From: a virus
UHGV virus genome: UHGV-0008389
Reading direction: 5' to 3' (one strand)
DNA: 43,755 nucleotides
In this document: positions 7,963-38,407 of the stretch, one piece after another
Numbering within the stretch: position 1 is the stretch's first letter
Layout of the letters: each line of letters starts with the position of its first letter
Made by a program: the position numbers and the translations under genes
The notes under the pieces: generated by a model
What the model was told of the DNA's origin: nothing
Databases searched by the model: none
What the model saw: the letters and a program-made list of their open reading frames with translations, nothing else

Positions 7963-7974
7963 CTACTCTCCATT

Positions 7975-7999
7975 AAACAAAAACCCAGCCGAAGCTGGG
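7975..7999 (-). terminator. Intrinsic terminator closing the inserted immI-like module
   Basis: On the minus strand CCCAGC ttcg GCTGGG followed by TTTTTGTTT. Confidence 0.6.
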
Positions 8000-8012
8000 T
8001 TTAGTGAATTGG

Positions 8013-9007: not shown

Positions 9008-9021
9008 ACTGGCGGTTTTTT
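8990..9021 (+). terminator. Plus-strand hairpin with T8 between ant and the next gene
   Basis: CCGCCAG cagcaca CTGGCGG followed by TTTTTTTT on the plus strand. Confidence 0.4.
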
Positions 9022-9040
9022 TTCACCGCCAGATGCGTCA

Positions 9041-10679: not shown

Positions 10680-12494
10680 CTAAGGCATTGCACTGGAAAA
10701 TGCCGCGTTTGTTGACGCCCGGCTAACTTGCTGATTGACACTTCTGGTAAGAGCATCAACTGTTGTCGGGTTACTGTTAACAACTACCGTGCCAATAGTT
10801 GTACTGCTGCTACGGCTGTTGTCAATTTTTGATGTTGTCTGGCTTGGTGTTGAAGCGATGCGTTGCTGCTGCTGATAGTAAGCCAGCGTCTCGTTTTCTT
10901 TTGCATTAAGAGCGGCGCGAATCTTTGGTACATATTCTCGCGTTTCTTTCGGCAGGGTGTTCCAGTATTTGGATGATGGTGAATCAAACCCGGTACTGGA
11001 TATGTATTTTAACTTTTTGTCTACATTGCCCATCCCCCAGTTGTAAGCCATCAGCGCATGGTTAACATTGCCTTTATAGTGCTTTAGCAAATCCCTCATG
11101 AACCTTTCAGCAGCAGCGCGAGATTTCACTTCATCAAGACGCTCATCAATCCCATCCCCGACCTTTAACCCGTACGCTATGGCAGTATCCTTCATGAACT
11201 GATACGGACCAACGGCACCTTTCGGGCTGTAAAGTTTTTTGCCACCGCTCGATTCCACCTCACGAATGGCATCAAGAAGAGAATCCATGCTTACTGGCTT
11301 TACTCCGTCAGGGAGAGGGATATCTGGCTGAATGTTATTGCCATAAATCTCATCACCCCTACGCCCAAAATCGGTATCAAACCCCATGCTGCGCATGGTA
11401 TCTCCAAGTTCACGCTTAGAGTAATCAAACGATCCTTTAGCTGCCCCCTCAATGTTTTCCCTGTCATTGTAGAGATACAAACCATATGCTATTAACCCTG
11501 CTAACCATGGAGGAAGGGCGCCGCCTGTAAGTTTGCTTCCTACATATGCTGCTGCCAATAGCTTCAGAGCCTCTTCCGCACCACCAACTGCCTTTGTGAA
11601 TTGCTGCGTCATATTCCCGGCGTCATTGAAAAAGCCAATGATGTCGCCATGATGTTTCTCAATCCAGGAACCAAAAGCCTTCATCCCGTCAATAACGTCT
11701 GGAGCGAATGCCATGGCTAAATTTTGCTTTAATCGGGAAAACTCTGAATCAAGTTGCCCAAGAGTGGCAGCAACCTTCTCCTGCTCTTTTACCTGCTGTG
11801 CTGTAATACGGGATTTCTTTGTTTCTGAATCGACAAGCTGCTTAAGTTCCCCTGATTTTATTTTAGCGGCATCTGTCGGATCGAACCCTGCGGCAGCCAT
11901 CACCTGCATCAGGTTTTCTTGAGAATGAGTCTTGCCATAGCGAGAAAACTCAGCAAGAGCCTTGTTTGGGTCGCCGAGCTTATTGATATCTATTCCGGTA
12001 CGAGCTCCAAGAATCAGCAAATTTTGTGCAGCGCCAGTAAGCCCTCCCATAACAGTCGGATCGGCAATATTTGCCAAAGCCATTCTGGCATTCCCAGAAG
12101 ATGAAATGAACGAGTCACCGTTAAGACCAGCCTGGCGAAATCCCCGCTGAACACCAAACATCTTATTAACATCAGAGTCGAAAAACTTGGCCTGTTGGCT
12201 GGCCCTCACAATTTCGTTGGCAGTAGATGTAAAAAGTTGCTTAATTCCATACAACCCGGCGCCAATTCCCAAAAATCCAGCGGCTGCTGTTGTCACGTTG
12301 CGGAAAGCTGAAACAGCGGTTTTACCGAACCTCTCCGTTTCCTGCCGCTGTTTTTCAAGTTCCTTTAGCCTTTCCTTCTCAGCCCTGGAAAGATCTTTGT
12401 TTAATTTACTAACTTCATCTTTTACTTTCCGTTTTCCATTCAGGAATTCATCGGCCTTAATTGTGACCTTGTAGGCCAACTCATTGATAATCAT
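10680..12494 (-). CDS. Tail tape measure protein with C-terminal lytic transglycosylase (SLT) domain
   Basis: 604 aa, long helical N-terminal part; C-terminal motifs EVESSGG ... GAVGPYQFM ... AYNWG typical of SLT domains. Confidence 0.8.
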   Translation of the reverse strand: MIINELAYKVTIKADEFLNGKRKVKDEVSKLNKDLSRAEKERLKELEKQRQETERFGKTAVSAFRNVTTAAAGFLGIGAGLYGIKQLFTSTANEIVRASQQAKFFDSDVNKMFGVQRGFRQAGLNGDSFISSSGNARMALANIADPTVMGGLTGAAQNLLILGARTGIDINKLGDPNKALAEFSRYGKTHSQENLMQVMAAAGFDPTDAAKIKSGELKQLVDSETKKSRITAQQVKEQEKVAATLGQLDSEFSRLKQNLAMAFAPDVIDGMKAFGSWIEKHHGDIIGFFNDAGNMTQQFTKAVGGAEEALKLLAAAYVGSKLTGGALPPWLAGLIAYGLYLYNDRENIEGAAKGSFDYSKRELGDTMRSMGFDTDFGRRGDEIYGNNIQPDIPLPDGVKPVSMDSLLDAIREVESSGGKKLYSPKGAVGPYQFMKDTAIAYGLKVGDGIDERLDEVKSRAAAERFMRDLLKHYKGNVNHALMAYNWGMGNVDKKLKYISSTGFDSPSSKYWNTLPKETREYVPKIRAALNAKENETLAYYQQQQRIASTPSQTTSKIDNSRSSSTTIGTVVVNSNPTTVDALTRSVNQQVSRASTNAAFSSAMP

Positions 12495-12709
12495 CGCTGC
12501 TCCTGATGTTTATTCCAGACCCGATTGTTAAATGATTCCACCGAGATAATTTCCAGAAGGTTATACATATCACGAACAGATAACCGTTCCTGCAAATCGG
12601 TATAAGTGGCTTTTCCTGAACAGATAATGGCGTTCATTGATGGTGTGACGTTTACGGGGCGAACGAGTTTTGCCGGAAGAGTCTCCTCCTCCATGAACGG
12701 GTACTTCAC
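12491..12709 (-). CDS. Hypothetical protein (possible tail assembly chaperone)
   Basis: 72-aa ORF immediately upstream of the tape measure gene. Confidence 0.35.
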   Translation of the reverse strand: MKYPFMEEETLPAKLVRPVNVTPSMNAIICSGKATYTDLQERLSVRDMYNLLEIISVESFNNRVWNKHQEQR

Positions 12710-13113
12710 TCTCCGGCGATCGTTAAAAAATCAAAATTGACTTTAAATACCTTATCCATTACCTGACGAATGGTTGATACCTCTTCAAAGTCGACAGGCT
12801 TCACGGTTCGCACCTGTCTGCTGCCTTCGTGTGTAATCACAATTTGCACAGTTGACATCAGGCGATCACGAAGTTTTCTGGCGACTTCCGGCGATGCAGC
12901 AGAAATAACATTCAGACCAAGGGTGGCAAGGCCAGCGCACCCCATGGCAATAACATCAGCAGGAATACCAGAGAATCCCGATTCCCCCATGGAGCGGAAT
13001 AAATCCTGTGCCAGTTCGTCGGCATCCCATGCCGACATCTCTGTGATAATGAACTCCTTCCCATTGTCGCGATTATCGTCTTCCACGATAAAGGGGATTT
13101 CTTTACGTGCCAT
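12706..13113 (-). CDS. Hypothetical protein (possible tail assembly chaperone)
   Basis: 135 aa, acidic; between the tube and tape measure genes. Confidence 0.4.
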   Translation of the reverse strand: MARKEIPFIVEDDNRDNGKEFIITEMSAWDADELAQDLFRSMGESGFSGIPADVIAMGCAGLATLGLNVISAASPEVARKLRDRLMSTVQIVITHEGSRQVRTVKPVDFEEVSTIRQVMDKVFKVNFDFLTIAGE

Positions 13114-13547
13114 CAGATAGTGCTCCGTGTTACAGACTCAAAGTGAAATACTGCCGGGCGTGGTTGCAGTACGCGCCGACCCGGAGGAGTTGGTGTCCAT
13201 GTATAAAGAACCCCGTTCACAAAATTCCACTTCGCGCCGAGAGCCGGAACTGTAAGCACCGCATTACACTGAAACGCTGAAATTGCAGTTCTCTCTGCTG
13301 CATACCAGTCATCAATCAGCGAGCCAGCATTAGATGTGGGCATCAGGTTGATGGTGAACTCTGTCGGGTTAAAGATAAAACCAGCATGGTATTTACCGTC
13401 CGCTGATATCATGTCTTCTTTGTTCTGTAGTGCGCCAGTTTCAAACATGTTATCAGCTGCGTAGTCGTCAACATCAAAACCGCCAGGGTAGTAAGCGGGT
13501 ACGACGATTCGCAGCTTACTGTTTGCCGAGGTAATATCGATAGGCAT
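13113..13547 (-). CDS. Tail tube protein (tentative)
   Basis: 144 aa; immediately downstream of the sheath-like gene. Confidence 0.5.
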   Translation of the reverse strand: MPIDITSANSKLRIVVPAYYPGGFDVDDYAADNMFETGALQNKEDMISADGKYHAGFIFNPTEFTINLMPTSNAGSLIDDWYAAERTAISAFQCNAVLTVPALGAKWNFVNGVLYTWTPTPPGRRVLQPRPAVFHFESVTRSTI

Positions 13548-13558
13548 GATTTATTCCC

Positions 13559-15049
13559 TTATAAAATCGCGGTTGAGGACATTGTGATGGACTGAATAAG
13601 TTGCCCATCGACATAATAAAAAATGACACCTTTCAGGTCGCGCTCAATGCGTGCAGAGCCTGACTGTGTCGGGATGTACAGGAACCAGCCCTGTGAATAC
13701 AGCGTCGATGAGATATCTTTTCCAACTGTGTTATTCACAATTCTGGTTTGCGCATTATCAAGTTTCACGCCACGCTGAATAGCCCCGAAATTGAGAGCCT
13801 GTTCAGCAACATCAATAACAGCAGCAGAAACTGCGCCGTATCCTGTCTCATTGAACGGGTAAGACTGGTTATTGGTGAACAGGTTGGCAAAAGCACTAAC
13901 CAGATTGGCATTAATCCATACCTGATTAATAAAACTGTCCAGCCATACAAACTTGCCAGTAATGGCACCATCAGATGCGTACTGCGCCATTGTTTTGTTC
14001 AGGCTGTATGAGCCGTAGAAGTTGTAACCGTTTGACTTCAGTGCCTGAGCAGTCGCCAGATCGCTGACGTTGGGTGCTAACCCTGAAAATCCACGGAACT
14101 TGAACGAGATACGCCCATTGGTGCGTGCAAAATCCACGGATGCAGCATATGCCAGTGCTGTAACGCTATACAGGTATGTTCCGTACACCGGAAAAATGTT
14201 CTCGTAGCCATTTGCCACAACCACTTTCTGCACAAAGCAATTGGCATTATTGGCTACCGTTCCTGCTGAAGTGGTGTCGTGAACAACATATCCAAATCGG
14301 TTTTTACTGCTGCTTGCCCATGCGCACAATTCTGTTTTCTGGTCATCGGTCAGTTCGACCAGCGAGTTAAACAGGATCCAGTTCTGGTTGACGTTGATGA
14401 TGTTGTTCATCGTGTCTGTCAGCGTTACCGCATCAGAACCCAGTGATACAATCGCTGCGGAATCCTGCGTCAGTAATAACCCGGCAGCCAGAGCGCCAGC
14501 AGAGGCATAAGACACTTCACTCTCTGCGCCAGTAGTGGCAGAGCGAATGATGAATCGGTTAGCGATTGGCAACCATTCAACCACCACCTTGCTTGCACCA
14601 ATTCCAACCTGCAACTTGGAAGCAATGTCACTAAAACTTGTGGCTGTGGACAAATCAATTGATGTGCTAGTAGTCGACTCACCGTCAATGGAAAGGGTGA
14701 TTGTTCCTGCTGGAATTGCTTTCAGTGTTGCCAGGGAAACACCTTTCAGGTTGCCGGACAGAAGATACCCAGCCACTGGTGAAGTAACAATACGATACAT
14801 CAGCAGTTCACCAGGAATAACGGATGAGTTTTCGTATCCGTTAAAATACTGTTGTGCGGCGAGGAATTCTTTCGATTCACTCCCCATCAAAGCTGATACA
14901 TCAGATGAGGAGTAATAAGATTGTACCGCGCCAACCGGGATAAGCTCGTTATCGGTCAACATCAGGCCGTTAGCATCAACCGCAGAACCGGCAGGCGTAA
15001 CGACATTGGGCGTGATATTAAAATCTACAGATAAAGGGATTGTGCTCAT
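13559..15049 (-). CDS. Tail sheath protein (tentative)
   Basis: 496 aa, similar in length to Mu gpL; position upstream of tube and tape measure genes. Confidence 0.55.
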   Translation of the reverse strand: MSTIPLSVDFNITPNVVTPAGSAVDANGLMLTDNELIPVGAVQSYYSSSDVSALMGSESKEFLAAQQYFNGYENSSVIPGELLMYRIVTSPVAGYLLSGNLKGVSLATLKAIPAGTITLSIDGESTTSTSIDLSTATSFSDIASKLQVGIGASKVVVEWLPIANRFIIRSATTGAESEVSYASAGALAAGLLLTQDSAAIVSLGSDAVTLTDTMNNIINVNQNWILFNSLVELTDDQKTELCAWASSSKNRFGYVVHDTTSAGTVANNANCFVQKVVVANGYENIFPVYGTYLYSVTALAYAASVDFARTNGRISFKFRGFSGLAPNVSDLATAQALKSNGYNFYGSYSLNKTMAQYASDGAITGKFVWLDSFINQVWINANLVSAFANLFTNNQSYPFNETGYGAVSAAVIDVAEQALNFGAIQRGVKLDNAQTRIVNNTVGKDISSTLYSQGWFLYIPTQSGSARIERDLKGVIFYYVDGQLIQSITMSSTAIL

Positions 15050-15594
15050 GGGCGGTTATCCACCTGTTCAGTTGAAATTTCTGCTTTGTCGAAATAGTCC
15101 TGCTGGAACGACACTGTGATGTGTGCTTGCAGGGAAAGAGTTAACGTGTAACGCTCCTGCCACTGACTCTCGGCGTTGATCATCGGCGCCTGAATGGCAG
15201 GAGATGAGTAAAGCGGCGCAAGCCGTGCATCAATAGCCTTGATGATGTCGTAGCCATATCCACTGGTGAATGTTGTTTCCAGTGCAATAGCTCTATCTCC
15301 TGCCCCCTGACCATAGATATCTACCTGAATATCAGCCTGGCGAACTTCCGTATATCCCATGGTGCTTGTGTCCGGAGAGCCGGTATCTTGCTTAAGCTCT
15401 CTCGTCGTGGATAGTCTGGTGAATCGCAAAGGGGTCAGGATACAGAACTGATCTTTGGGCATTGGTACACGGTTAGCCTGAGCCTGCAGGCATTTACCAG
15501 CGATAGGTTCTATGTAGCCAGCAAGTACATCGATAATATTATCGACAGTGAAATCATTCATGGGCTTACCTGCAATACAGCAATCAGCCGGCAC
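15046..15594 (-). CDS. Hypothetical virion protein
   Basis: 182-aa ORF in the late operon between head and tail modules. Confidence 0.4.
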   Translation of the reverse strand: MPADCCIAGKPMNDFTVDNIIDVLAGYIEPIAGKCLQAQANRVPMPKDQFCILTPLRFTRLSTTRELKQDTGSPDTSTMGYTEVRQADIQVDIYGQGAGDRAIALETTFTSGYGYDIIKAIDARLAPLYSSPAIQAPMINAESQWQERYTLTLSLQAHITVSFQQDYFDKAEISTEQVDNRP

Positions 15595-15935
15595 CAGTCA
15601 GGCCACAACTCTATTGGCTCAACAACAAGCCATTGTTCCCCGTTAATCACGAAGATATCTCCGCCCTGCTCCAGTTCTCGCTGCACACTGAAGTAATTAC
15701 CATTGACGTAAATCACTTTTGCCAGCCCCTGAATATTCAATCCATCGACGTGTTGCATGTCGCCGCGACTGATTGGCTGTAGTTGAATGGTAACGTTCTG
15801 GTCAGGGAGATAAGACGGAATCGGCTTGCGACCGGGGCCGATAGTTTCACCTGCATACTTTTTCAGGATTGCCGGGATGTTGGGGTTAATGCTTGTGATC
15901 GCGTTATTGGCTATCTGTCGAAGATTCAATTTCAC
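15558..15935 (-). CDS. Hypothetical virion protein
   Basis: 125-aa ORF in the late operon. Confidence 0.4.
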   Translation of the reverse strand: MKLNLRQIANNAITSINPNIPAILKKYAGETIGPGRKPIPSYLPDQNVTIQLQPISRGDMQHVDGLNIQGLAKVIYVNGNYFSVQRELEQGGDIFVINGEQWLVVEPIELWPDWCRLIAVLQVSP

Positions 15936-16470
15936 CTACCTCATAATCAACAGCCCTTAACATGTCCCCGGTCCATATGAGAGGCTTGTTGTTGCTCATA
16001 TCAACATCAACCTTTTTCACCGGACCGAAATAGCCCGGACCACCAAAAACATCTTCTCTGGCCTTCACTACATCCCACTTAGTCATTTCCGCCCTGTTAT
16101 TAGGGAATCTACTTCTTAGAAGTACTGTTACCGGGCTTAATGGCGGCTCTTGAATAGTTCGAATGGATTCCTGGATGTCTGCTTTTATGATCTCGCCGAT
16201 AAGATTCAGAACAGTATCCGTATCTCCGTCATGCGATTTCATGAGCTTTTCGACCTTTTCTGACCACTCTTCAGATTTAGAAGCTATAGCATTCCTGAAG
16301 AATGGCCTTGGCGGACTTCCACTTGCCGGGTTACCAAATTCGTTAGATGCTGCAACCATTGGCATAGAAGTACCATCTGGATAGGTGGCATCTTCAAGAA
16401 ACCCGACCTTCAATTGCTTTGAGGACAACTCACTACCAACTGAATCAAGGAACTCCATCACCTTATCCAT
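15904..16470 (-). CDS. Virion morphogenesis / head-tail joining protein (tentative)
   Basis: 188-aa ORF, position after the capsid genes. Confidence 0.4.
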   Translation of the reverse strand: MDKVMEFLDSVGSELSSKQLKVGFLEDATYPDGTSMPMVAASNEFGNPASGSPPRPFFRNAIASKSEEWSEKVEKLMKSHDGDTDTVLNLIGEIIKADIQESIRTIQEPPLSPVTVLLRSRFPNNRAEMTKWDVVKAREDVFGGPGYFGPVKKVDVDMSNNKPLIWTGDMLRAVDYEVGEIESSTDSQ

Positions 16471-16901
16471 CAGTACCTCCGGTAATACCCATACGGGTAA
16501 TTTGATGGAGAATGCCCGCTTATATACTGGAAGGTGCGAAACGGCGCCGTAGCATTCCAGTAATCAGCCCCGTACTTTGTTTGCATGTACCATGCTGAAT
16601 TTGCTGTTCCCCCTGGCATATCGGCATGAACGCTAACCGAACCCTCTGAAGCACTGTCGATTCTTCCAACCAATCCGGATGGAGACTGCCCATTCGCTCC
16701 TGAATACAAACAGGCGATATGGGCAACCAGCATATTCAGCAGCATTGAGCGTACAGCCAAATCCGACACGCGACTTGAGTCTGTGTTATCGAGATAAATG
16801 GTTGCTTGCGTGAAATACTGCTGAAGAAGTGCGTCGTCGACAGATGAGAATTCAGGATAGCGTAGCTTAAATGCGGAGGGGTCAAATATTACGACGCCCA
16901 T
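16470..16901 (-). CDS. Head-tail connector-like protein (tentative)
   Basis: 143-aa ORF coupled to neighbouring genes. Confidence 0.4.
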
Positions 16902-16913
16902 TTGCTGCTCCCG

Positions 16914-17261
16914 CTATTTTTCGTCAGCCTTTTTTACGCCCGGAGCCGGATTTTCCGGGTCAAGGCCTTCGAGGCCAGTTTTTGATTCTTTCAGATCTTT
17001 ACCCTGCGCATTCAGACTGAGAATATCTTTCTGAATGAAGATTGCATTATTCTGAATATACGCGGCATCCTTATAGGTCTCGATGAACTTATCCATGAAG
17101 TCTTTCTCGACCATGGTAACTCCGAAAGCCCCCTCAGGAATTGCACCATCAAGACCACGGAGGGCGGTTGTTGCCGCCCCGTTCAGGATTACTGTTTTGC
17201 CATCCAGAGTTACCTGAAGGCCATTTGGCAATTTGCAGCCAACGCTTACCATTTCTGCCAT
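16914..17261 (-). CDS. Hypothetical head-associated protein
   Basis: 115-aa ORF directly downstream of the major capsid gene. Confidence 0.4.
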   Translation of the reverse strand: MAEMVSVGCKLPNGLQVTLDGKTVILNGAATTALRGLDGAIPEGAFGVTMVEKDFMDKFIETYKDAAYIQNNAIFIQKDILSLNAQGKDLKESKTGLEGLDPENPAPGVKKADEK

Positions 17262-17264
17262 GAA

Positions 17265-18305
17265 TTAAACTCCCAACATGCTTGCAAATGCCAGCGGCTG
17301 GCGAATGATTGCGCCCCAGGTGCCACCGGTTTTCTTTTGTTTGTACGCGGACAGGTCAACAACAACCGGATGCGCACGCATTTTTTCGGTAAATGCGCAG
17401 TAGCCGGTGTCCTGACCATCCAAATCGTCGGCGATCAACTGAACCAGTTCGCCGGATTCGGTTTTGTACTCGACAGCAGTAACAACGCGCAGGTTCGGGA
17501 AGTTTTTCTTCAGCTGATCAGACACGTTGACGTTGTACATGTTGGTCTTGGTCAGATTTGCTTCTGACTCTGGACTCATCGCCAGCGTCATCTTGCTGTC
17601 CCGCTCAACGTACCCCTTGGTCTGCTTCACTAACTGCATGTAAAGCGCCTGGATATCGTCATACACCGCCTGACCGTCTTTAGTTGCCCAGGTAGTTCCG
17701 CTGCCGGTACCCGTTGCGCCAGGAGTGATTGATGCCGGAAGGTTAGGGTCATTCAGAATGCCGTAGTTCTTCAGGCCAGCAACGCCGAAGAAGTAGGACT
17801 TGTTCTGGAACTTATTCAGGGTCAGCGCAGAAGCCGTATTCAGTTGTTGAGCCCATGCAATGCGGCCTTCACCGTAACGGTCAAGTTCCAGCTCACCCCA
17901 CTGAGTAATGGTCTGGTACAGATAGGACTCACGAGCAACCCAGTTGACGTTAGCGTTTACCTGCCCATTATTGTTGTAGTCACCATAACTGGAAACCTGA
18001 CCTGTTGATTCCACAACCGGGAATTGTGCGGTCATGGTGGTCCAGTCTCCCTTCTTCGTTTCCCCCAGAATTTCCACCGCTTTCATCGGAGTGACAAGGA
18101 TACGAATCAGTTCCGGGTCAACGTAATTAGTGAAGTACCATGGAATGCCTGAGTTACTGGTTGTTACCAGTGAAGGCTGAGAGTCCATTGCATAGGAATA
18201 GCTATTAGCAACAGCATCCGTCAGATAGGCTTTGGCTTCCGGAAGGATTACACCGTAATCTCGCTCAGCCATAGCTTTATGTTGTAAAAATTCTGCGTTA
18301 TTCAT
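17265..18305 (-). CDS. Major capsid protein
   Basis: 346 aa; follows scaffold/protease and decoration-like genes in canonical head-module order. Confidence 0.7.
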
Positions 18306-18308
18306 GTA

Positions 18309-18788
18309 TTAGCTCCAGGTGCCCATCTGAATCAACTCGCCAGCCTCGCCAGCACTGCCAACGACAAATTTTGTTTCAACGTAATCCGAAATTGACGCCC
18401 CGGCATCGCCAGCGGTAATAGTTCCATCTGACAGTTTGGCGAAAATCTTCTGCCCTACGGTTGCTGCACCGGCAGTTTTCACCCAGTAGTCACCAGCAGT
18501 CATCAATGTCATCTGAACTCCAGGCTGAATAGTCATAGATGATTCACCAAGCCATGTGGTGACAGACGCCTGCCCTTCCCGATGAACGAAACCGGCAGGA
18601 GCACCGGTTCCAGTGTTATTGGCAACACCATTGCTTACCCATGCAAAGCGACCAACAACAACCCCATTTGCACCGGCAACAAGAGCGCCCTCCCCAGCAA
18701 GAAGACTTGCTTTAGGGTTAGCCGAAGCGAAATCGCCTTCAACTCCCGGCGCCTGTTGCTGATTAATTACACTTTGAAAGCCACTCAT
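18309..18788 (-). CDS. Head decoration/structural protein (tentative DUF2190-like)
   Basis: 159 aa, Gly/Ala-rich; between scaffold/protease and major capsid genes. Confidence 0.5.
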   Translation of the reverse strand: MSGFQSVINQQQAPGVEGDFASANPKASLLAGEGALVAGANGVVVGRFAWVSNGVANNTGTGAPAGFVHREGQASVTTWLGESSMTIQPGVQMTLMTAGDYWVKTAGAATVGQKIFAKLSDGTITAGDAGASISDYVETKFVVGSAGEAGELIQMGTWS

Positions 18789-18791
18789 TTC

Positions 18792-20018
18792 TTAGCTCCG
18801 TTTCAGTTTAGTTGCGCCAGGAAATGCCTTGGCGAAAGAATTGGTTGCGGCAGCATCCATACCCAGACCATGAGATGGTTTTCGAACTACCGCTTTCTGG
18901 CTGATAGCAAATTCAACCATCGATTTAAGTGCTGAAGGATGAACGCCTTTATGTTCGGCACCGATTGAATCAAGAGCAAAGCGATAAATAGACTCTGCGG
19001 AATCCATAGCGACCAGACTCACATCACCAACCAAAGCACGAACACATTCTCGAGCCTCATTGGCTTGACGGATACGCCCCATCACATTCTCTTCAGCTTT
19101 TCGAATCAATGCGGCATCCATAGCTGCTTTATTCTCATCATCGTCTTCATCCTCGGCAGTCTTTTTATCCTTGCCGTCATCATTTTCGTCTTCCGCTTCT
19201 TTGCGGTCACGATCGCGATCCTTTCGCTCACGTTCTTCACGCTCTTTTAGTTCATCCTCTTCACGTTTCAGACGCTCTGCTTCTGACTCATTATCTCTCT
19301 CAGCCTGAGTGGCTTCGTCTTCAACAACCTTTTGCACTTTCTTTTCCACTTCTTCTGGCTTCTCATCACTGGCCAGCATCGGCGTGATAACTGCCATCAA
19401 CTTTTTAGTAAGTTCTGACATTGATTTCATTCCTGTTGGTATTGAATCCCCGACAACAACGTCGGATCCGGCTCTTCCCTCTGTTACGAGAGCAACGTGG
19501 TTCCCGACGATATCGCGCATTACACCATCGTATGGCTGGCCTTCATGCACGCCGGGGGTCATGTCAGCTACATATCTGTAGGCCGACGAAAGTTCTTTCT
19601 TCTCGTTTGTCTCGATTCCAGCGATAGAATCCGCATCCCATACGACAAGCGAGTTCTTGAGATAAGTCCCGTCAAACTCAGCATCAGTACCAGTAGAACC
19701 AACCACAGCCATCTTCTGAGGGTCTGAAGCAGTAACCGGGATGTGTTCGTTAAGGAGCGGGATGTTGTTGAATGTAGATGCTGCTTTGGCTAACTCTTTC
19801 GGGTCACGAAGCAGGTAGTAAACTTTGTCAGGCTGTAAACCTAGCGATCTGTAATTAGGGATTTCACGTCCATAATAAGGGCAAACGTTAGCCTTACTGA
19901 TTGGCGTCACTTCTATATGCAAACGCCCATCCTTATCAAAGGAGCGCACCGTTGCCTTATCGAATGCCAATCCGTGATATCCCCATTGCCAGCCGCCTTT
20001 AACTTTGCGTAATGGCAT
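18792..20018 (-). CDS. Putative prohead scaffold/protease protein (tentative DUF2213-like)
   Basis: 408 aa with a central highly charged low-complexity segment ([54 protein letters not shown]); position between the F-like and capsid genes. Confidence 0.5.
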
Positions 20019-20039
20019 GCTTTTACCTTTCGGCAGGCA

Positions 20040-20062
20040 ATAAAAAAGCCGCAGTAGCGGCC
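20040..20062 (-). terminator. Weak intrinsic terminator inside the head module
   Basis: On the minus strand GCCGC tact GCGGC followed by TTTTTTTA, between the F-like and scaffold genes. Confidence 0.4.
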
Positions 20063-20152
20063 ATTATTTCCCCTTGGGCATAGCTATTTTCAGTAGTGCA
20101 ATCATTAAGCAACCAAAAATCAACACTAAGCCCAGAGACCATAAAACCTCAA

Positions 20153-20971
20153 TCATTTTCTATCTATCCCAGGGATAACAGGAGACCACGTACAACGGCA
20201 GTTGATTGCCTCTCCCGGCAGCACCCATTCACCATCGAGATACAGCCCTTTATCGAGGTCGAACTCTTTACCGTCAGCTTTCACATGGGATGGCCTTGGC
20301 TGCTTCCCGGCGTGTGAGTGACGCCAGATTCCTTTGGTGATTCCTAACTTCTTCTGCCGTTCAGACTGAATTACCGCTGTAGCTTTGTTGTTCTGATCGC
20401 GTGCAATCGTCTCAGCGCGTCTGCGTGTAATGCCATATCGCTTAACCAGTTCATCAGTGAGATAGCCAAGGTCACGACCACGGCTGACAGACTGCATGAC
20501 TATCGTCTCAACCTGTGTGTGATAGTGTTCAGGTATGGATTTAATCAGGTTGACGTTCTCGTTAACGACAGCCTGCATCACGTTCTTAAGCTCGTCATTC
20601 ATTGTGAACTTAACGGTAAATCCGCCAGCCTTTAACGCTGAGTGTAACGAAACGTCGGTGTTGCGCAGTGTCTTATCAACGAAGCGATCAGCCAGTTTCT
20701 TAGCCAGTTCATTGAATTTATGCTCCCACTGCTTGCCTAGTCTGGACAATCTGCGCTTTAACTCATTCGCGGGGCTGGAATCCATCGCCATGTTGTTTTT
20801 GTATGCGCCCTCAAGCCAGTATCGGTATGACTTATCCATCTCCCTAACCAGCTTGAGAAGCTCAGAGCGATACCACTCATGAACTCCGGCGTTAGCTCTG
20901 ACTGGACGAAGGGTTTTCCTGGTCTTCAAATCCTTCTTCGATGGACTCGTTTTCGTACTCTTCTTCGTCAT
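20153..20971 (-). CDS. Head morphogenesis protein (Mu F-like / SPP1 gp7 family)
   Basis: 272 aa; C-terminal ...[15 protein letters not shown] motif characteristic of Mu F-like minor head proteins; downstream of portal. Annotated start overlaps the portal 3' end by 80 nt, so the true start is uncertain. Confidence 0.7.
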
Positions 20972-22427
20972 ATTCAGATTCCATCATGTGGTATGGACTG
21001 GCCTTATCCGACTGGCGCATACTTCTTATTGCATCAAGGTCAAACACGCCAGCTTCGGCATAGTTCTTATCAGCCTCAGACTGATGTTTCATGATCTCGG
21101 CTTTCTCTGCTTCTGTAAGCTCGTACAGCGGCAGGAATTCAAAATCAATGTCAGGGTCAATCTCGCCAAATTCATTCAACTGGATAACATCCAGCACTGT
21201 TTTCAGCGGCACCCTGAACAGATTCTCCTGCATGGCGTGTATTGAGTCATAGAAGACGCGGATTTCGCCATCAGATGAAGCGTTTAGCCCGTTAGGAGTG
21301 ATGCCAAGGAGCTTAACCAGAGGAATGCTTGATACCGATGCCATTTGTTCCTGTGCCTGCGCCTGAAGAGCATCGACTCCGGACAGACTTGTCACAAACT
21401 GGAAGAATTCTTCCCCATCCTTATCAATAAGGAACATTCCGCGATTGTCGCGAACCTTATTGAAGAGCTCGGCACGCATAAACAGGTTTGGGTCTGCAAT
21501 TCCAGACAAGGCATTCTGCATGTTCGTCTTCAGCCCATAGACCACAAACGAATGAACCAGATCGCTAACGCTGTCACGTGTTCTCAGCCAGTTTTGCACA
21601 TAGGGCTCTGCCATCTGACTCAGCGACAAGCCGCCGAAGTTGTACGCCGCTTTGAGAATGTCTGGCACCTGGCGAGAAATCATTGTCAACATGCGACTGG
21701 CGTGAACCGTGCGCCCCATGACATACCATTCAGATGGATTGAAGAAGTCAGGGCTTAGAGGATTGTCAGCGTTATACACGCCCGGGTAAGTCCACATGGC
21801 TTCGATAACGCGGAAACCATTCAGGCTTCCTTTGGTAATCTTGCGCGGACTGATATAGAGCTTCTTATCCAGTTCGTCGGGAACCAGCCAGGCTGAGTTA
21901 CCGCTTGGCGTCTTCACGTCGATATAAATCTGTCCGCGCCCGAAGTAACCGTCATGTTCCGCCGCCTCGCGAAACTTCTCTCGCACTCTGAAACGCTTTA
22001 ATGCGTCGTCAAGCTGGCGAATCTTATCGGCCTTGTCGTCACCATCGTCTTTACCAACATGTTTCAGCTCAATCCATTTTCGCGTCATCTCTTCTGCTAT
22101 CGTGCCAGTAATCTTGCGATACTCCGGCAACTGAGCAAGTTGAGACAGATATGGGTAGCCAGGAAACCCACCGTAGCCATATGCGGTGATGTTTGCTGAA
22201 TTAAGGTAACTGTACGGTGTGGAGTCCATCGCCAGAGCTGACTCCCCAATATGTTCCGGAATAACGCCAGGCGGGGGTACGTATCGCTCAATTCTACGCA
22301 ATGCCTCGCCTTCATTTTTAATTCGCTCCTGCTCGTTAATAATCGCAAGAACATTCGCCAGAGACATTGGCTGTTTCGCCTCTTCTTTCTGAGGCTCAGA
22401 TTTTTTCTTTCTCAAAAAATTAAACAC
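20892..22427 (-). CDS. Portal protein
   Basis: 511 aa, acidic C-terminus; immediately downstream of the large terminase. Confidence 0.7.
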
Positions 22428-23953
22428 TATGCGAGCCTCAAAAGGTCTTCAGATATACGTAACGGACCATTGCCATTTTTCATCTCATCGATGGCATCCA
22501 TCATCGGATCAAGCTGGTCGTCGTGCGTATTGAAATCAGGATTAATAGCTTCCATTTCAACGAGGAAGTCGTTGATGAATGGTGCGTTGCTGGGGAGCTT
22601 GATGTAGCCGGACTCGATATAACCCTGTACGTCCATCAGTCGCGTGTACTTATCCTTATCACGCTGAATTGCTTTGATGGGGCATATCGCTTTTTTTCGG
22701 ATGTTCTGTATCAGGCCTGTGCCAGATGACTTATCCTCTATCGCCATGTGGCGAAGCGGCCCATTCTTCAGAGTTTTGCACTTTTCCCAGAATGCAACAG
22801 CACGGCGTTGTAATTCATCGGCCTCCCATTTACCGCGAATCATATCGATCAGATAGATGTACCCGTCAGTACCAAGCCCCCAGTGCTCGAATACTGAGAA
22901 GTCGTTGACCTCTTTTGTTTTCTGTGCGGTGTCTCCATAGACGGCACGCCATTGCATGGGAGGGAGTACCGAATATTCACCAAACCATTCAGACTTAATA
23001 AGCCCACCGCCTTTGGCGGTTGGTCGTTGCTGATAAAGGGCATTCCATACAAGAGAACCGCGCTGTTTGCACTTCTCTACGAACTCTCTCGGCATGCGCT
23101 CAGGAAACAGAATTTCACCGGGATTGCGCAGTCGATACACATTACCGTTGAGTTCATGAATCTCTTCCTTTTCAGCCTCCATTGGGAAGCTAACTACGCG
23201 CCAGCGTTCCCCGCCCTCTTCAGCCAGTTTTAATAACTGTCCGGCGAGATCGTTTTGATGCCAGCGTGTCAGGATGATGACGATGCCGTTTATCTTCGGG
23301 TCAACACGAGTGAAGAATGTCGTGTCATACCAGTCCATCACCGCTTCCTGGTAAGTTGGAGACGATGCGGTTTTGTAATCTTTCGCGGGGTCATCAATAA
23401 CCCCAATATTCATACCCTGCCCGGTGATGCCCCCGTTAACACCAGCAGAACGATATGAGCCGCCGTGTAGTTCGCCTTTGGCATCCACTGGTTCCCATAG
23501 CTCGGTTTTGTTGATGCCTCCCGCCAAACTGCGTCCTGAAGGTATTTTCACGTCAGGGAAAACATCAGCGTACTTGTCAGAGGTGATAATGCGTTTAACG
23601 TCACGGCTCATTCGGTCTGACAGGTCAGAAGAATATGAGCACGAGATAATGTTCCATGATGGATGCTGTCCTAACACATACGCTGGGAAACGGCGAGAGC
23701 ACAACTCACTCTTTCCTGAGCGCGGAGGGGCAAACACCATTAGCCTGGGCATGTTTCCGGCTTTAACTTCATCCAGAAAGTGATCCAGCTCAGCACAAAG
23801 CAGCTCGTTAAACCAACCTGTTTCGTATTGCGGATTAGTGTACAAAGTGAAATCGAGAAGGTTTTTCCTTGCTGAGCGGATAGCCAGCTCTTTGTGCAAC
23901 TCATAAATCTGAGCGTTTCGATTCAAGCTGATTGGAGCGCCTGCCATTACCAA
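22427..23953 (-). CDS. terL: Terminase large subunit
   Basis: 508 aa; Walker A-like [10 protein letters not shown] and ATPase/nuclease-type layout; follows the small subunit. Confidence 0.85.
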
Positions 23954-34027: not shown

Positions 34028-34857
34028 GAAGGCATTTCAGTTTTCCCGTAATCTTTGGCGGCAAAGTTTTCCTGCATAGCTCGCTGCTGCGGCCTCGGTT
34101 GAGATTTCCCCTTTGGAGTCTTGGGTTCAAAAATCCCCTGCCAACCACTGGCGATGCTCTGGTTTATAATTTCTTCAGGTGTATATCCCTTCTCCAGACT
34201 TCTGCTTAGAACGTTGATAGCCTGAGTGACACTTTGCTTAGACTTGATCGACTTACCTATCTCCTTGCGATAGGTAACCCACGACAACCATGTTTCTGCT
34301 GATAACCAATCAGGCAACTCTGTTTCTAGCGGGTCGAACTTCTGAGAAACTTTTTTGGGGGATATAGGGGGTTTATTAATATTTTCTTTTTTCTTTAAAG
34401 AATTTCTTTTGTGTGTCTCTAACTTCGAGACATTGAGTGTCTCTAATTTGGAGACATTTTTTGTCTCTAACTTCGAGACAAAGTTACTAACTTGGAGACA
34501 CTTGCTGAATTGCCACGCAGATACCTCACTGTTTACACCGATTTTATTTCCATCCATAAACAGGCAATTCATTGAAATCAGTTCTTTTTTAGCCTTGTTA
34601 ACATTCTGCCTTGACAGTCCTGTTAACTGAGCAATTTGCTCATCGGCTATTCGATCTGTTTTCTTATTGAAGCCATATGTTTTCCGGACGTAGGCCAGCA
34701 TAACTTTCAACTGGCGAGCGGTTAAATCGGCACTTGCGATAGCTTCCAGCAGCTCGTTAGCGAATCTGGTGTAACCATCATCGATATCAGCCACTCTTAG
34801 CTCCTGTTCGGCAAAGTTACCTCTGCCGAAGTTGAGTATTTTTGCTGTATTTGTCAT
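34012..34857 (-). CDS. O: Replication initiator O
   Basis: 281 aa; N-terminal MTNTAKILNFGRGNFAEQELRVADIDDGY... matches lambda O as recalled; iterons lie inside the gene. Confidence 0.85.
   Translation of the reverse strand: MTNTAKILNFGRGNFAEQELRVADIDDGYTRFANELLEAIASADLTARQLKVMLAYVRKTYGFNKKTDRIADEQIAQLTGLSRQNVNKAKKELISMNCLFMDGNKIGVNSEVSAWQFSKCLQVSNFVSKLETKNVSKLETLNVSKLETHKRNSLKKKENINKPPISPKKVSQKFDPLETELPDWLSAETWLSWVTYRKEIGKSIKSKQSVTQAINVLSRSLEKGYTPEEIINQSIASGWQGIFEPKTPKGKSQPRPQQRAMQENFAAKDYGKTEMPSWAQE
34414..34500. repeat. ori: Replication origin iterons (four roughly 19-bp inverted-repeat units) with flanking AT-rich region at about 34345-34413
   Basis: TGTCTCTAACTTCGAGACA (34414-34432), TGTCTCTAATTTGGAGACA (34438-34456), TGTCTCTAACTTCGAGACA (34462-34480) and a partial fourth copy ending 34500; located within O as in ori-lambda. 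Confidence 0.75.
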
Positions 34858-34891
34858 AATGACTCCTGTGGATTGTTCCAGTCTTTCTACA

Positions 34892-35170
34892 TCAGGCCTC
34901 GAAGAATTCGCCGTTCTTCGGGGCTTTTTCTTTTGTCAGCATTCTTGCTACTTTCTTAGCCAGTTCCGCCAACTCCTCGTCTTCAACACCCCATTCAAGA
35001 ACAGCCAGAAGCATTCCCATTTTTGGGATGAAGCTATCTTTCCATCGAGAAATTTGCGATTCATTAATCCCTAACGCGTCGGCAACCTTTCGCTGACCAC
35101 GTACAGCAATTCGATTCAGGATGTTGCTTGTAATTGCATTCGCTTTCTTGCGAGTACTTGTAAGTTCCAT
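34892..35170 (-). CDS. cII: Transcriptional activator cII
   Basis: Internal-Met product ...GINESQISRWKDSFIPKMGMLLAVLEWGVEDEE... matches lambda CII conserved region; located between cro and O. Confidence 0.8.
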   Translation of the reverse strand: MELTSTRKKANAITSNILNRIAVRGQRKVADALGINESQISRWKDSFIPKMGMLLAVLEWGVEDEELAELAKKVARMLTKEKAPKNGEFFEA

Positions 35171-35279
35171 ATGCAAGTATTTCCTTAACAAATAAGAAGT
35201 TATGCGCATCAACTTATGCGCGTTGTATTCCCGCATTTCGGCGGGAATGAGGACCATGACTGTTAAAGAGCGGTGTTAC

Positions 35280-35489
<210 letters not shown>

Positions 35490-35506
35490 TTAGTACATGC
35501 AATCAT

Positions 35507-35570
35507 TATCACCGCTAGAGGTAAAATAGTCAACACGCACGGTGTTAGATATTTATCCCTTGCGGTGATA
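35507..35570. promoter_or_regulatory. OR: Right operator OR1-OR2-OR3 with divergent promoters PR (to cro) and PRM (to cI)
   Basis: TATCACCGCTAGAGGTA (35507-35523, OR1), CAACACGCACGGTGTTA (35531-35547, OR2), TATCCCTTGCGGTGATA (35554-35570, OR3); lambda-type 17-bp operators. Confidence 0.9.
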
Positions 35571-35577
35571 GATTTAA

Positions 35578-36294
<717 letters not shown>

Positions 36295-36409
36295 TTCCAA
36301 TTGTGATTTATGAAAAGTCAATTGCGCCAGATTAGCGATGATGACAAACCACTATGTCTTATCCTCAACATGAATACATTCATCGTAACCACAACAGGGA
36401 GTTTAACGA

Positions 36410-37414
36410 ATGAATACTATTGAAAATAATGATGTTTATGTGTATATAGGCGATATTCATCGTGATGGTTATCTTGATCTAACCAATAAAATCAAGAAGC
36501 GTAAGTCACAAAATGAATTAAAAAAGAATGTTATCTTCTGTGTTGCTACTTATGGCGGTGATCCTAATGCTGGTTATCGTATAGGTAGGGCTCTCCAGCA
36601 CTATTATGAAACGGTAACACTTTTAGTTGTTGGGCCGTGCAAAAGTGCTGGTACACTAATAGCCATAGCTGCGAATAAACTTGTTATCGGTGACATGGGT
36701 GAGCTCGGGCCATTAGATATCCAACTGAAAAAAAACGATGAAATAGGTGAGATGAGTTCTGGTTTAGCCATTATGACAGCTCTCGATGCACTGAAGGAGC
36801 GCTCTATTTCAGCGTTTAACTCATACCTTGTTCAGATAAAATACGAAAACCAGATAAGCACTAAAATATCTGCTGACATCGCAACCAGACTTACAGAGGC
36901 ATTGATAGCCCCCATGGCTGCTCAGATAGATCCAATAAAACTTGGTGAGCATCAGCGTGCGATGAGCATTGCTATCACTTATGGTCAACGGTTAGCAGAC
37001 AAGCCAAGTAGTCTAAAAGAAGGGGCGTTAAGCAAACTCATCGCTTCGTATCCTTCACATGGATTTGTTATCGACAGAAAAGAAGCCAAGGAACTTTTCA
37101 AGTGTGTTGAATGTCCTAAAGGTATAACAGAAATACTCGATAATTTTTTCTGTGATAAGATTCATAGTGGTGAAATCCCAACGTTTGGAAAACCAAGGGT
37201 GATGGATTTCCCTCTTACTACACAAGATAAAGAGGACAATACTAATGCCGAAGAATCTGCAACCGGAGATGGAAATTCTCAACAAAATGTTGGAAAGCCA
37301 GATCCAAGAAAGTCGCAATCTGGCAAGAAAAGCGGAACAGCACCTGAACGAGATCAAAAAAGAACTGGAGCCGTATCAATTCAACCACCAGATGAACAGC
37401 AACCTAATGCGTGA
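36410..37414 (+). CDS. ClpP/SppA-fold serine protease-like protein occupying the rexA/rexB slot downstream of cI
   Basis: 334 aa, AT-rich; GGAG-type RBS; VIFCVATYGGDPNAGYRIGRAL and VVGPCKSAGTLIAIAA fit the ClpP/S49 pattern (GG..AG..I; G-x-[AC]-x-S-x-G around a candidate nucleophilic Ser); about 70-aa hydrophilic C-terminal tail; same strand and operon position as rexAB in lambda; terminator at 37445-37470. Confidence 0.65.
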   Translation: MNTIENNDVYVYIGDIHRDGYLDLTNKIKKRKSQNELKKNVIFCVATYGGDPNAGYRIGRALQHYYETVTLLVVGPCKSAGTLIAIAANKLVIGDMGELGPLDIQLKKNDEIGEMSSGLAIMTALDALKERSISAFNSYLVQIKYENQISTKISADIATRLTEALIAPMAAQIDPIKLGEHQRAMSIAITYGQRLADKPSSLKEGALSKLIASYPSHGFVIDRKEAKELFKCVECPKGITEILDNFFCDKIHSGEIPTFGKPRVMDFPLTTQDKEDNTNAEESATGDGNSQQNVGKPDPRKSQSGKKSGTAPERDQKRTGAVSIQPPDEQQPNA

Positions 37415-37430
37415 TCTCTTTGCTCTGTAA
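37245..37430 (+). CDS. Possible overlapping small ORF (61 aa, predicted helical) in alternate frame at the 3' end of the protease gene
   Basis: ATG at 37245 preceded by AGAGGA about 9 nt upstream; product MPKNLQPEMEILNKMLESQIQESRNLARKAEQHLNEIKKELEPY... looks helical, while the in-frame protease tail is low-complexity; stop 14 nt before the terminator. Confidence 0.25.
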   Translation: MPKNLQPEMEILNKMLESQIQESRNLARKAEQHLNEIKKELEPYQFNHQMNSNLMRDLFAL

Positions 37431-37444
37431 TTAATTCCTCACAT

Positions 37445-37470
37445 CCCGGCCTCAGCGCCGGGTTTTCTTT
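37445..37470 (+). terminator. Intrinsic terminator ending the cI-protease (immunity) transcript (tIMM-equivalent)
   Basis: CCCGGC ctcagc GCCGGG followed by TTTTCTTT. Confidence 0.7.
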
Positions 37471-37626
37471 GCCTCACGATCGCCCCACCTAAAAACACAT
37501 AACCAATTGTATTTATTTGAAAATTAATAGATACAACTCACTAAACATCACAATTCAGATCTCCCGATCACCTTCCCAATCCACACACCCCTGCAAAAAA
37601 TAAATCTATATAAAAAACATACAGAT

Positions 37627-37696
37627 AACCATCTGCGGTGATGAATTATCTCTGGCGGTGTTGACACGCATACCACTAGCGGTGATACTAAACACA
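37627..37696 (+). promoter_or_regulatory. OL: Left operator OL3-OL2-OL1 and promoter PL
   Basis: AACCATCTGCGGTGATG (OL3), TATCTCTGGCGGTGTTG (OL2), TTGACA -35, TACCACTAGCGGTGATA (OL1), GATACT -10; near-identical to lambda OL/PL as recalled. Confidence 0.9.
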
Positions 37697-37734
37697 TCAG
37701 CAGGACGCTGGAAGCCAAACGGAACAGATTGGCA

Positions 37735-37947: not shown

Positions 37948-38067
37948 ATGTTAGACATCATGACCAACCCAATTCTCGGTGGTTTAGTTACCACATTCGC
38001 CATCTGCTTCGGTTTCACTATCTGGTCTGAAGTAGATGACTGGATGTGGGAACGCAAAAACAAATAA
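37948..38067 (+). CDS. Small hydrophobic ORF (39 aa, single predicted TM) between nutL and N
   Basis: ATG at 37948 preceded by GAGGA; product MLDIMTNPILGGLVTTFAICFGFTIWSEVDDWMWERKNK; below the 60-aa cutoff of the supplied ORF track. Confidence 0.35.
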   Translation: MLDIMTNPILGGLVTTFAICFGFTIWSEVDDWMWERKNK

Positions 38068-38107
38068 TCATCGACACACAAGGATGTGTACCTTCCCGGA
38101 GGTCAAC

Positions 38108-38407
38108 ATGACAGTAGTCATTACATATCTTGCTGACGATAACGCCAGAAATCGCCGCAGAGCACGCAGACAGGCTCAACGTGAACAGGCAATGCAAGAG
38201 CAGCGACTGGCGCGAAAAATTGCGCTAAAGCTCTCTGGTTGCGTCAGAGCAGATAAAGCAGCATCACTCGGAAGCCTTCGCTGCAAGAAGGCAGAAGAAG
38301 TCGAGAGTAAACAGAATCGTATTTACTACCGCAAGCCACGCAGTGAAATGGGTGTGACTTGTGTTGGTCGCCAGAAAATGAAATTAGGCAGCAAACCACT
38401 TATTTGA
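38108..38407 (+). CDS. N: N-like antitermination protein
   Basis: Arg-rich motif DDNARNRRRARRQAQREQAM and C-terminus YRKPRSEMGVTCVGRQKMKLGSKPLI resembling the lambda N C-terminus; GGAGG RBS before the ATG at 38108; first PL-operon gene after nutL. Confidence 0.75.
   Translation: MTVVITYLADDNARNRRRARRQAQREQAMQEQRLARKIALKLSGCVRADKAASLGSLRCKKAEEVESKQNRIYYRKPRSEMGVTCVGRQKMKLGSKPLI

Follow-up and report, generated by a model that had tools for sequence, protein, structure and literature searches.

The virus genome UHGV-0008389, a stretch of 43,755 nucleotides (nt) that we refer to throughout as the window, carries a lambda-like immunity region in which rexA and rexB have given way to a different cassette. 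In the slot between the cI repressor gene and the OL/PL region, we found a gene for a 334-amino acid (aa) serine protease of the serine dehydrogenase proteinase (SDH) type with a ClpP fold (36410..37414, plus strand) and, hidden in the +1 frame on the tail of the protease gene, a second, small gene (37232..37430, plus strand, with its Shine-Dalgarno sequence). A first-pass annotation of the same DNA had described the 334-aa open reading frame (ORF) as the only gene in the slot. The ORF is present exactly as described, with its motifs VIFCVATYGGDPNAGYRIGRAL and VVGPCKSAGTLIAIAA; it is, however, not alone, since a second, conserved +1 ORF (37245-37430) overlaps its tail. Judging from the sequence, we consider it about an even chance (probability ~0.5) that the two genes make up a two-component module, expressed in the lysogen, that uses the protease for exclusion or abortive infection.

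The case begins with the precision of the replacement. A BLAST comparison with lambda gave two blocks of homology around the slot. In the first, positions 34664-36295 of the window correspond to lambda 38879-37226 at 84% nt identity, and the match stops at the cI stop codon. In the second, positions 37445-37708 correspond to lambda 35824-35570 at 89% identity, and the match starts one base past rexB. Lambda rexA-rexB (35825-37225) has therefore been precisely exchanged for window positions 36296-37444, as the first-pass annotation had surmised before any alignment to lambda. Its description of the surroundings as lambda-like was likewise borne out. The cI gene (35581..36294, plus strand), identified from the ORF list and the lambda BLAST, encodes a lambda-type repressor of 237 aa; cro (35280-35480, minus strand) and cII also lie upstream of the protease gene; and all six lambda operators could be mapped with 0-1 mismatches each. 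The lambda-type operators OR1-3 occupy 35507-35570, and OL3 (37627-37643), OL2 (37647-37663), and OL1 (37671-37687), all on the plus strand, accompany a lambda-type PL promoter at 37661-37689 (plus strand; -35 TTGACA at 37661-37666 and -10 GATACT at 37684-37689).

At the left edge of the slot, a junction and a 115-nt leader (36265..36409, plus strand) precede the protease gene. Lambda homology ends at 36295, and from ~36265-36267 onward the sequence is homologous to protease cassettes that stand behind a different, H-19B/BP-4795-type repressor; the junction lies ~28 nt inside the 3′ end of the repressor gene. The Shine-Dalgarno sequence of the protease gene (AGGGAG) is at 36396-36401. The gene lies on the same strand as cI, as had been noted, and a scan for hairpins and terminators predicted no terminator-like site between the two; cI is presumed to be the upstream gene of the PRM/PRE immunity transcript. 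At the right edge is a Rho-independent terminator (37445..37472, plus strand) made up of a CCCGGC-loop-GCCGGG hairpin (37445-37462) and a run of T residues, which is homologous to lambda t_imm. The first-pass annotation had assigned this terminator to the protease gene, but the hairpin falls inside the lambda-homologous block and is therefore the conserved t_imm, rather than something brought in with the protease gene. The exchangeable slot ends here on its right side, and the flank is common to 124 lambdoid and Stx phage records. The cassette thus stands directly downstream of a prophage repressor, on the same strand, and upstream of the immunity terminator. Its protease gene had been called AT-rich, which is correct in direction, but the GC content (0.403) is only modestly lower than that of cI (0.458) or of the window (0.453).

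The protease core spans aa 1-267 (36410-37210) and is under strong purifying selection, with a ratio of nonsynonymous to synonymous substitution rates (dN/dS) of 0.07-0.09. The predicted nucleophile, Ser79 (36644-36646), is found within the family-invariant motif C77-K78-S79-x-G81-T82, and the predicted oxyanion-hole residues are Gly49 and Gly50 (36554-36559). Across 40 homologues, with identities down to 41%, G49, G50, H64, C77, K78, S79, G81, T82, D103, H181, H217, and D222 are invariant. In a profile alignment, CKSAGT falls on the nucleophile motif of ClpP, and a manual alignment to the E. coli ClpP sequence puts Asp103 (in GPLDIQ) at the position of the ClpP histidine, which fits the Ser-Asp-His order described for PF01972. 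Similarly, the succession of Ser79, Asp103, His181, and His217 in the 40 homologues is, in terms of sequence order only, consistent with the Ser, Asp, His of PF01972. The S14 ClpP arrangement, Ser-His-Asp with the histidine in MIHQP ~25 residues past the serine, was not found, as the invariant Asp103 is located there.

An AlphaFold2 model of the protease, built on the 40 homologues, gave predicted local distance difference test (pLDDT) values >90 at residues 11-100 and a good prediction for a helical middle and a small C-terminal α/β region. Fold comparison identified the protein as ClpP/NfeD/SppA-like and thus as a member of the ClpP/crotonase superfamily, and in a comparison with viral structures the best whole-length matches were SDH proteinases, not prohead proteases. 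Profile matches were marginal and centered on the active site: PF01972 (SDH_protease) scored 26.6 bits, below its gathering cut-off of 31.3; NCBIfam NF047768 (Clp_like_SDH) scored 34.1 bits, far below its cut-off of 250; CLP_protease scored 20.3 bits, over residues 34-90 only; and NfeD1b_N scored 20.1 bits. Many homologues carry a precomputed PF01972 match, and the orthologues from E. coli are listed in RefSeq as "SDH family Clp fold serine proteinase". The subthreshold scores for PF01972 and NF047768, taken with the SDH structural matches, therefore indicate a divergent relative, and not a model-level member, of these families. Among phage protein families, it belongs to PHROG 21683 (E 3.8e-172), which has no assigned function. 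The first-pass annotation had proposed a ClpP/S49-like protein. The ClpP half of this description stands, with a ClpP/SDH-type fold and an intact nucleophile motif, but Peptidase_S49 gave no match at E <= 1, and any likeness to SppA is at the level of the fold; the name "SppA protein" that some databases give to homologues is a source annotation. The Pfam scan returned only the three ClpP-clan models plus a chance DDHD match, with no stomatin/Band 7 domain, and a sequence search identified no solved structure of the family. By these sequence comparisons, the protein is a divergent SDH-type enzyme of the ClpP clan, neither an S14 ClpP nor an S49 SppA, which is predicted to be proteolytic and appears to be cytoplasmic.

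Beyond the core, the first-pass annotation had seen a hydrophilic, low-complexity tail of ~70 aa. This part of the ORF (37211..37414, plus strand; aa 268-334) is indeed predicted by AlphaFold2 to be disordered (pLDDT <50 for residues 270-334), but it is dual-coding from 37245 on, and the "tail" is mainly a by-product of an overlapping, selected gene in the +1 frame. The small ORF begins with the ATG at 37245, nine nucleotides after a GAGG Shine-Dalgarno sequence (37232-37235), and ends with the TAA at 37428-37430, 16 nt past the protease stop codon and just ahead of the terminator. Both the GAGG and the ATG are conserved in ten aligned enterobacterial loci. The predicted product is 61 aa long (7.35 kDa): MPKNLQPEMEILNKMLESQIQESRNLARKAEQHLNEIKKELEPYQFNHQMNSNLMRDLFAL.

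Several comparisons identify the +1 frame as the frame under amino acid selection in the overlap. Read in frame 0, the tail has a dN/dS of ~1-1.7, and its dS is several-fold below that of the core. Variability at the three frame-0 codon positions, expressed as entropy, is 0.42/0.18/1.26 bits in the core and 1.07/0.77/0.65 bits in the overlap, and the most variable position in the overlap is therefore the wobble position of the +1 frame. The same switch is apparent in 11 independent non-enterobacterial pairs, in which mismatches at the three positions number 116/53/75 in the last 150 nt versus 168/39/908 in the core (chi-square p = 3.5e-6). We also considered whether recent recombination could account for the low dS of the tail, and rejected the idea, as nt identity in the tail bin is not above that of the core and the codon-phase pattern switches. 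When identical spans of DNA were compared, 261 pairs of +1 peptides were significantly similar, versus 153 pairs of frame-0 tails and 110 pairs of +2 peptides. When jackhmmer was started with the 61-aa peptide on all collected loci, translated in six frames (21,466 segments), it gave 33 matches, and all 33 were at the equivalent position. Other clades have conserved +1 motifs of their own, such as Q-M-x-K-A-x-EFARMV and HQ(T/M)P..V..A, with a conserved Met before each. With an open frame, a codon-phase signature, and conserved start signals, the small ORF thus has the hallmarks of an overlapping gene, and its translation is predicted.

The arrangement is family-wide. Among the 141 non-redundant loci whose downstream sequence was long enough, a small same-strand ORF occupies this position in 132, from various phyla; 118 of these ORFs are in the +1 frame, and the median overlap is 170 nt. 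In a minority of loci, the small gene is a conventional one that overlaps the protease gene by 4-41 nt and carries the same EFA(K/R)M motif (e.g., locus L076, and 7839-8006 in a Gilliamella locus), a layout that speaks for a protein with a start of its own and against a frameshift fusion. Furthermore, aa 268-279 of the protease, encoded upstream of the small-ORF ATG, are variable at all three codon positions, so that no conserved slippery site is apparent. The long frame-0 extension also seems to be maintained, since synonymous recoding of the +1 ORF kept frame 0 open in just 0.1% of simulations (median 3.9% across loci), although this test is partly circular. AlphaFold2 predicted a single α-helix for the small protein (residues 3-60, pLDDT 86.5). 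Its relatives tend to end in non-polar residues: at least three of the last four residues are hydrophobic in 42% of 102 proteins, versus 7% of internal 4-mers. Searches against Pfam and known families, toxin-antitoxin (TA) families included, gave no match to the small protein apart from chance coiled-coil matches below cut-off. The gene is unannotated in the two RefSeq orthologous loci examined, where gene callers annotate the protease alone. The protein has been called in only nine database clusters; in the one that we checked, both occurrences are at the end of a contig, where the protease gene is truncated.

The protease family itself is large and uniform in length (~300-360 aa). We recorded 1,569 matches in a 90%-clustered database and 1,354 clusters at 50% identity (E <= 1e-30), from Proteobacteria, Chlorobi, Cyanobacteria, Acidobacteria, Chloroflexi, Planctomycetes, and others, and relatives are encoded in only 2 of 50,697 phage records. 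In E. coli, the same cassette (~99% and ~90% nt identity) is found behind two immunity types, namely the lambda-like cI/cro and the H-19B/BP-4795-type repressor of 234-235 aa. Relatives at 45-56% identity lie 79 nt past a repressor with helix-turn-helix and S24 domains in Bartonella, and 98 nt past RacR-like repressors in Rac-like prophages of Klebsiella. Among viral contigs in IMG/VR, Peptidase_S24 was detected in 38 of the 72 ORFs immediately upstream of the protease gene on the same strand, and after de-replication at 80% identity 18 of the 31 viral-contig protease clusters stand directly downstream of a cI/S24-type repressor. In a P2-like Burkholderia phage, a relative adjoins the integrase gene. 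The cultured temperate Klebsiella phage ST13-OXA48phi12.4 (locus L181) encodes the protease (78% identical), annotated as "SppA protein". In that locus, a 71-aa ORF (2302-2517) precedes the protease gene and overlaps its start, and the protease gene is divergent from a pair encoding an XRE regulator and an ImmA/IrrE metallopeptidase. Experiments could use this phage as a model.

The slot downstream of a prophage repressor had been put forward in the first-pass annotation as a home of exclusion genes, and the comparison of slots strengthened that view. According to Owen et al. (2021; PMC8585504), the cI-N region is a mosaic hotspot and the home of RexAB and BstA, and in lysogens few prophage promoters are as active as that of cI. 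In the phages compared here, the interval from the repressor stop codon to t_imm is a hotspot of cargo: it holds rexAB in lambda, an NYN-domain gene in phage 2B8, and a three-gene cassette in BP-4795 and Stx phages. In the lambda-like phage 2B8 (locus L178, 1746-2603), as well as in ev099, which is also lambda-like, the rexAB slot holds a single 285-aa gene for an NYN-domain protein, a predicted RNase. In BP-4795 and Stx2a_WGPS9 (L179 and L180, 1259-2600), the slot genes, whose stops and starts overlap, encode proteins of 95, 218 (annotated as "transcriptional regulator"), and 134 aa; the repressor ahead of them is of the type that also precedes the protease cassette in E. coli. The three-gene cassette and the NYN gene are candidates for further uncharacterized repressor-linked cargo. 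We also scanned, with PADLOC and Pfam, 150 neighbors of the protease gene in 25 genomes, taken up to three positions away. BstA was found twice, once as a full-length protein encoded directly downstream in Gilliamella (E 6.7e-117) and once, in Pseudomonas, as a BstA-like protein; these neighbors also included MzaA, a Pycsar cyclase (PycC), and PD-Lambda-2 A and B. In a prophage immunity region of Gilliamella sp. Pas-s25 (locus L100, 5660-9732), genes for an S24-type repressor, an 81-aa ORF, the SDH protease, a small ORF, and BstA stand in tandem on one strand; the partner ORF (7839-8006) overlaps the protease gene by 41 nt, and the BstA homologue is encoded at 8818-9732.

Taken together, the exact replacement of rexAB, the location on the cI strand with no intervening terminator and a shared t_imm, the cargo hotspot with its repressor linkage and BstA neighbors, and an intact, constrained protease with a genuine, family-wide partner gene are the grounds on which we favor an exclusion or abortive-infection module. 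The mechanism might be as follows. The two-gene accessory cassette would be co-transcribed with cI in the lysogen, from PRM/PRE. The first gene would provide a cytoplasmic SDH-type ClpP-fold protease with Ser79 as nucleophile, Gly49-Gly50 as oxyanion hole, and Asp103 plus a downstream histidine as further catalytic candidates; the second, which lies in another frame within the 3′-terminal part of the first, would provide a protein of 61 aa that consists of one helix and is non-polar at its C-terminus. The helix protein probably binds the protease, be it as inhibitor/antitoxin, adaptor, or substrate, and we picture it as either a labile inhibitor or antitoxin, or a sensor or adaptor. Infection by a heterologous phage would then perturb the pair, and the released or redirected protease would cleave a phage protein or an essential host protein, such that the infection is blocked by exclusion or by abortive infection, in functional analogy to RexAB, BstA, or the Lit protease. 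That the small partner evolves fast relative to the enzyme is reminiscent of antitoxins and sensors. More tentatively, and with less confidence than we have in the module itself, the cassette may be the first known case of a widespread anti-phage (or conflict) system that is based on a protease and has two components, the second of which was overlooked through its +1 overprinting on a disordered tail; the system would preferentially use the repressor-proximal slot from Enterobacterales to Bartonella and beyond.

A number of observations weigh against an anti-phage module. The general base of the protease is a candidate only, chosen from residue conservation, and the role of the helix protein as inhibitor or sensor is purely inferred. 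No family of PADLOC-DB v2.0.0 matches the protease at E <= 1, in line with the first-pass annotation, which could not match the protein to any characterized system. The defense genes among the neighbors are only suggestive, because the scan had no matched control. In one-genome-per-species data, 6 of 67 clusters are repressor-linked and the neighbors are mostly housekeeping genes; the family is therefore not restricted to prophages, and the housekeeping neighborhoods of most non-viral members make a general cellular role possible. Finally, the cassette is rare in E. coli, with 28 occurrences in 5,426 complete genomes.

These same points bear on the rival explanations. One is that the protease and its helix adaptor degrade a phage or host regulator, such as CII/CIII/Xis-type proteins, antirepressors, or stress regulators, and thereby stabilize lysogeny, or tune induction or host fitness, without targeting superinfecting phages. 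The tight linkage to repressors of several families would suit such an accessory, there is precedent for proteases encoded beside repressors in ImmA/IrrE with ImmR, and the many members in non-phage housekeeping neighborhoods suggest that a phage is not required. Yet lambda immunity, with its cI, OR, and OL, works without the cassette while carrying rexAB instead; the occurrence of the same cassette with unrelated repressors (S24-type, RacR-like, and XRE/ImmA) argues against a repressor-specific partner role; and the slot otherwise holds exclusion-type cargo. We regard a role in lysogeny control or host physiology as unlikely. A selfish, TA-like addiction module, with the protease as toxin and the helix protein as labile antitoxin (or the reverse), would stabilize the prophage or island and have no dedicated anti-phage role. 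Such a module could explain a two-gene layout with an inseparable small partner, the fast evolution of that partner as compared with the enzyme, the degron-like non-polar C-termini, and the patchy distribution over phyla and mobile elements; but neither gene resembles a known TA family, toxicity is conjectural, and many TA-like modules also defend against phages, so this explanation overlaps with the defense module that we favor. As an account that excludes defense, we find it quite unlikely.

The remaining alternatives concern the identity of the genes. If the +1 ORF were a meaningless alternative-frame ORF, or if it supplied a C-terminus of the protease through programmed +1 frameshifting, the module would have one component. 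The A/G-rich composition of the tail does lower the frequency of stop codons in the other frames, and gene callers annotate a single gene. A chance ORF is nevertheless hard to reconcile with the move of variability to the +1 wobble position, with +1 peptides that are better conserved than the frame-0 tails, and with a conserved ATG and GAGG at the very start of the conserved peptide. Frameshift fusion was likewise judged unlikely, given the conserved start signals, the members with a conventional downstream gene and as little as 4 nt of overlap, and the lack of an apparent conserved slippery site before the ATG. Overall, a one-component module is highly improbable. The last alternative, a displaced or redundant prohead protease or a scaffold remnant, draws on weak matches to ClpP-related head-maturation models (NF045542, 32.6 bits, E 7e-8; phrog_1684, E 6e-7), which cover ~60-80 residues around the active site. 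However, as the first-pass annotation had pointed out, the prophage has a separate head protease. This head-maturation protease (18792-20018, minus strand; phrog_2229, E 1.9e-172) is full length and encoded in its own head module, where the genes for the portal (20892-22427) and the major head protein (17265-18305) flank it, whereas the slot gene lies between cI and OL/PL, and its relatives are in the immunity region in every prophage-associated locus examined. Together with the whole-length structural matches to SDH proteinases and the membership in PHROG 21683, these facts led us to reject a prohead protease identity, the chances of which we consider close to nil.

How would an exclusion module of this kind compare with known systems? 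RexA-RexB share the slot with the cassette, downstream of cI on the cI strand and upstream of t_imm and OL/PL; the two are exchangeable, and expression from PRM is presumed. By sequence and fold, the cassette is unrelated to RexAB (a sensor and membrane-channel pair), to BstA (a KilA-N-type DNA-associated protein), or to Stk of 933W (a kinase), although BstA, known from BTP1-like prophages, is a direct neighbor of protease-family members in two genomes. The closest relatives of the protease, the SDH-type proteinases (PF01972; NF047768), have the ClpP/crotonase fold and a serine in G-x-x-x-S-x-G-T after a GG pair, both as in the window protein, whose conserved residues are also consistent with their Ser...Asp...His order. 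The window protein differs from them in falling below both cut-offs, in its ~330-aa architecture with a helical C-terminal half, in its dual-coded tail, and in its partner gene. We found no biochemical characterization of this SDH subfamily in the literature, and no literature on PF01972/SDH proteases in phage biology.

Other ClpP-fold proteases offer partial parallels. The active-site strand of NfeD (1510-N), ASAGTYIAL, is similar to KSAGTLIAI of the window protein, and the partners or substrates of NfeD and SppA are bound or acted on at hydrophobic C-terminal segments, a parallel to the non-polar C-termini of the small proteins. NfeD/stomatin and SppA are, however, membrane-associated enzymes with a Ser-Lys dyad, unlike the apparently cytoplasmic window protein with no match to Peptidase_S49 or stomatin, and the slot showed no gene for a stomatin partner. 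Lambda C/Nu3 is likewise a ClpP-fold (S49 prohead) protease gene whose 3′ part encodes a separately initiated small protein. Nu3, though, is nested in the same frame as C and functions in head assembly, whereas the nested gene of the window uses the +1 frame and belongs to the immunity region of a prophage with a separate head protease. As for protease-based defense, the Lit protease of prophage e14 aborts infection by cleaving its target when triggered by a phage peptide. It provides a mechanistic analogy as a prophage protease, but it is a zinc metalloprotease encoded by a single gene that is not repressor-linked, and it has no homology to the cassette. DefenseFinder also lists a validated two-gene anti-phage system, "FS_HP_SDH_sah", reportedly encoded by a phage-inducible chromosomal island (PICI) and described by Fillol-Salom et al. 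in 2022, that combines a PF01972 (SDH_sah) component with a hypothetical protein; its two components may correspond to those of the cassette, and PADLOC has no related model.

If the cassette is a defense system, it would widen the enzymatic repertoire of the exclusion genes that temperate phages carry beside their repressors, adding a ClpP-fold serine protease that a small helix protein regulates or targets. It would also provide a ready experimental handle, since no genetic context is better understood than the lambda-type immunity region, and there are mutations that cleanly separate the functions of the two overlapping frames. Regardless of what the cassette does, a family of >1,300 clusters holds a conserved and essentially unannotated second gene, which matters for genome annotation, for the reading of "disordered tails", and for defense-discovery pipelines that work one gene at a time.

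The virion module (10680-23953, minus strand), with the phrog_2229 head protease, the portal, the large terminase, and a tail sheath (13559-15049, phrog_205), is not lambda-like, and the encoded sheath implies a contractile tail. This module has almost no nt similarity to the 50,697 phage records, the best match being a Vibrio phage with 70% identity over 3 kb. The genome is thus a mosaic of a lambda-type immunity and early region and a myovirus-type morphogenesis module. Beyond PL, lambda homology ends at 37708, and the N and nutL region is not lambda-type; the segment 37755-38250 is not common to the other protease-carrying prophages compared. It includes a 39-aa ORF (37948-38067, plus strand; Shine-Dalgarno sequence GAGGAA) between PL and the N gene, which encodes the hydrophobic peptide MLDIMTNPILGGLVTTFAICFGFTIWSEVDDWMWERKNK, is unannotated in related RefSeq loci, and by its position would be transcribed early from PL. 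The N-like antiterminator ORF that follows (38036-38407, plus strand; 123 aa) is probably over-extended; initiation at the ATG at 38108 would give a 99-aa protein that starts with MTVVITYLADDNARNRRRARR and has an arginine-rich motif near its N-terminus.

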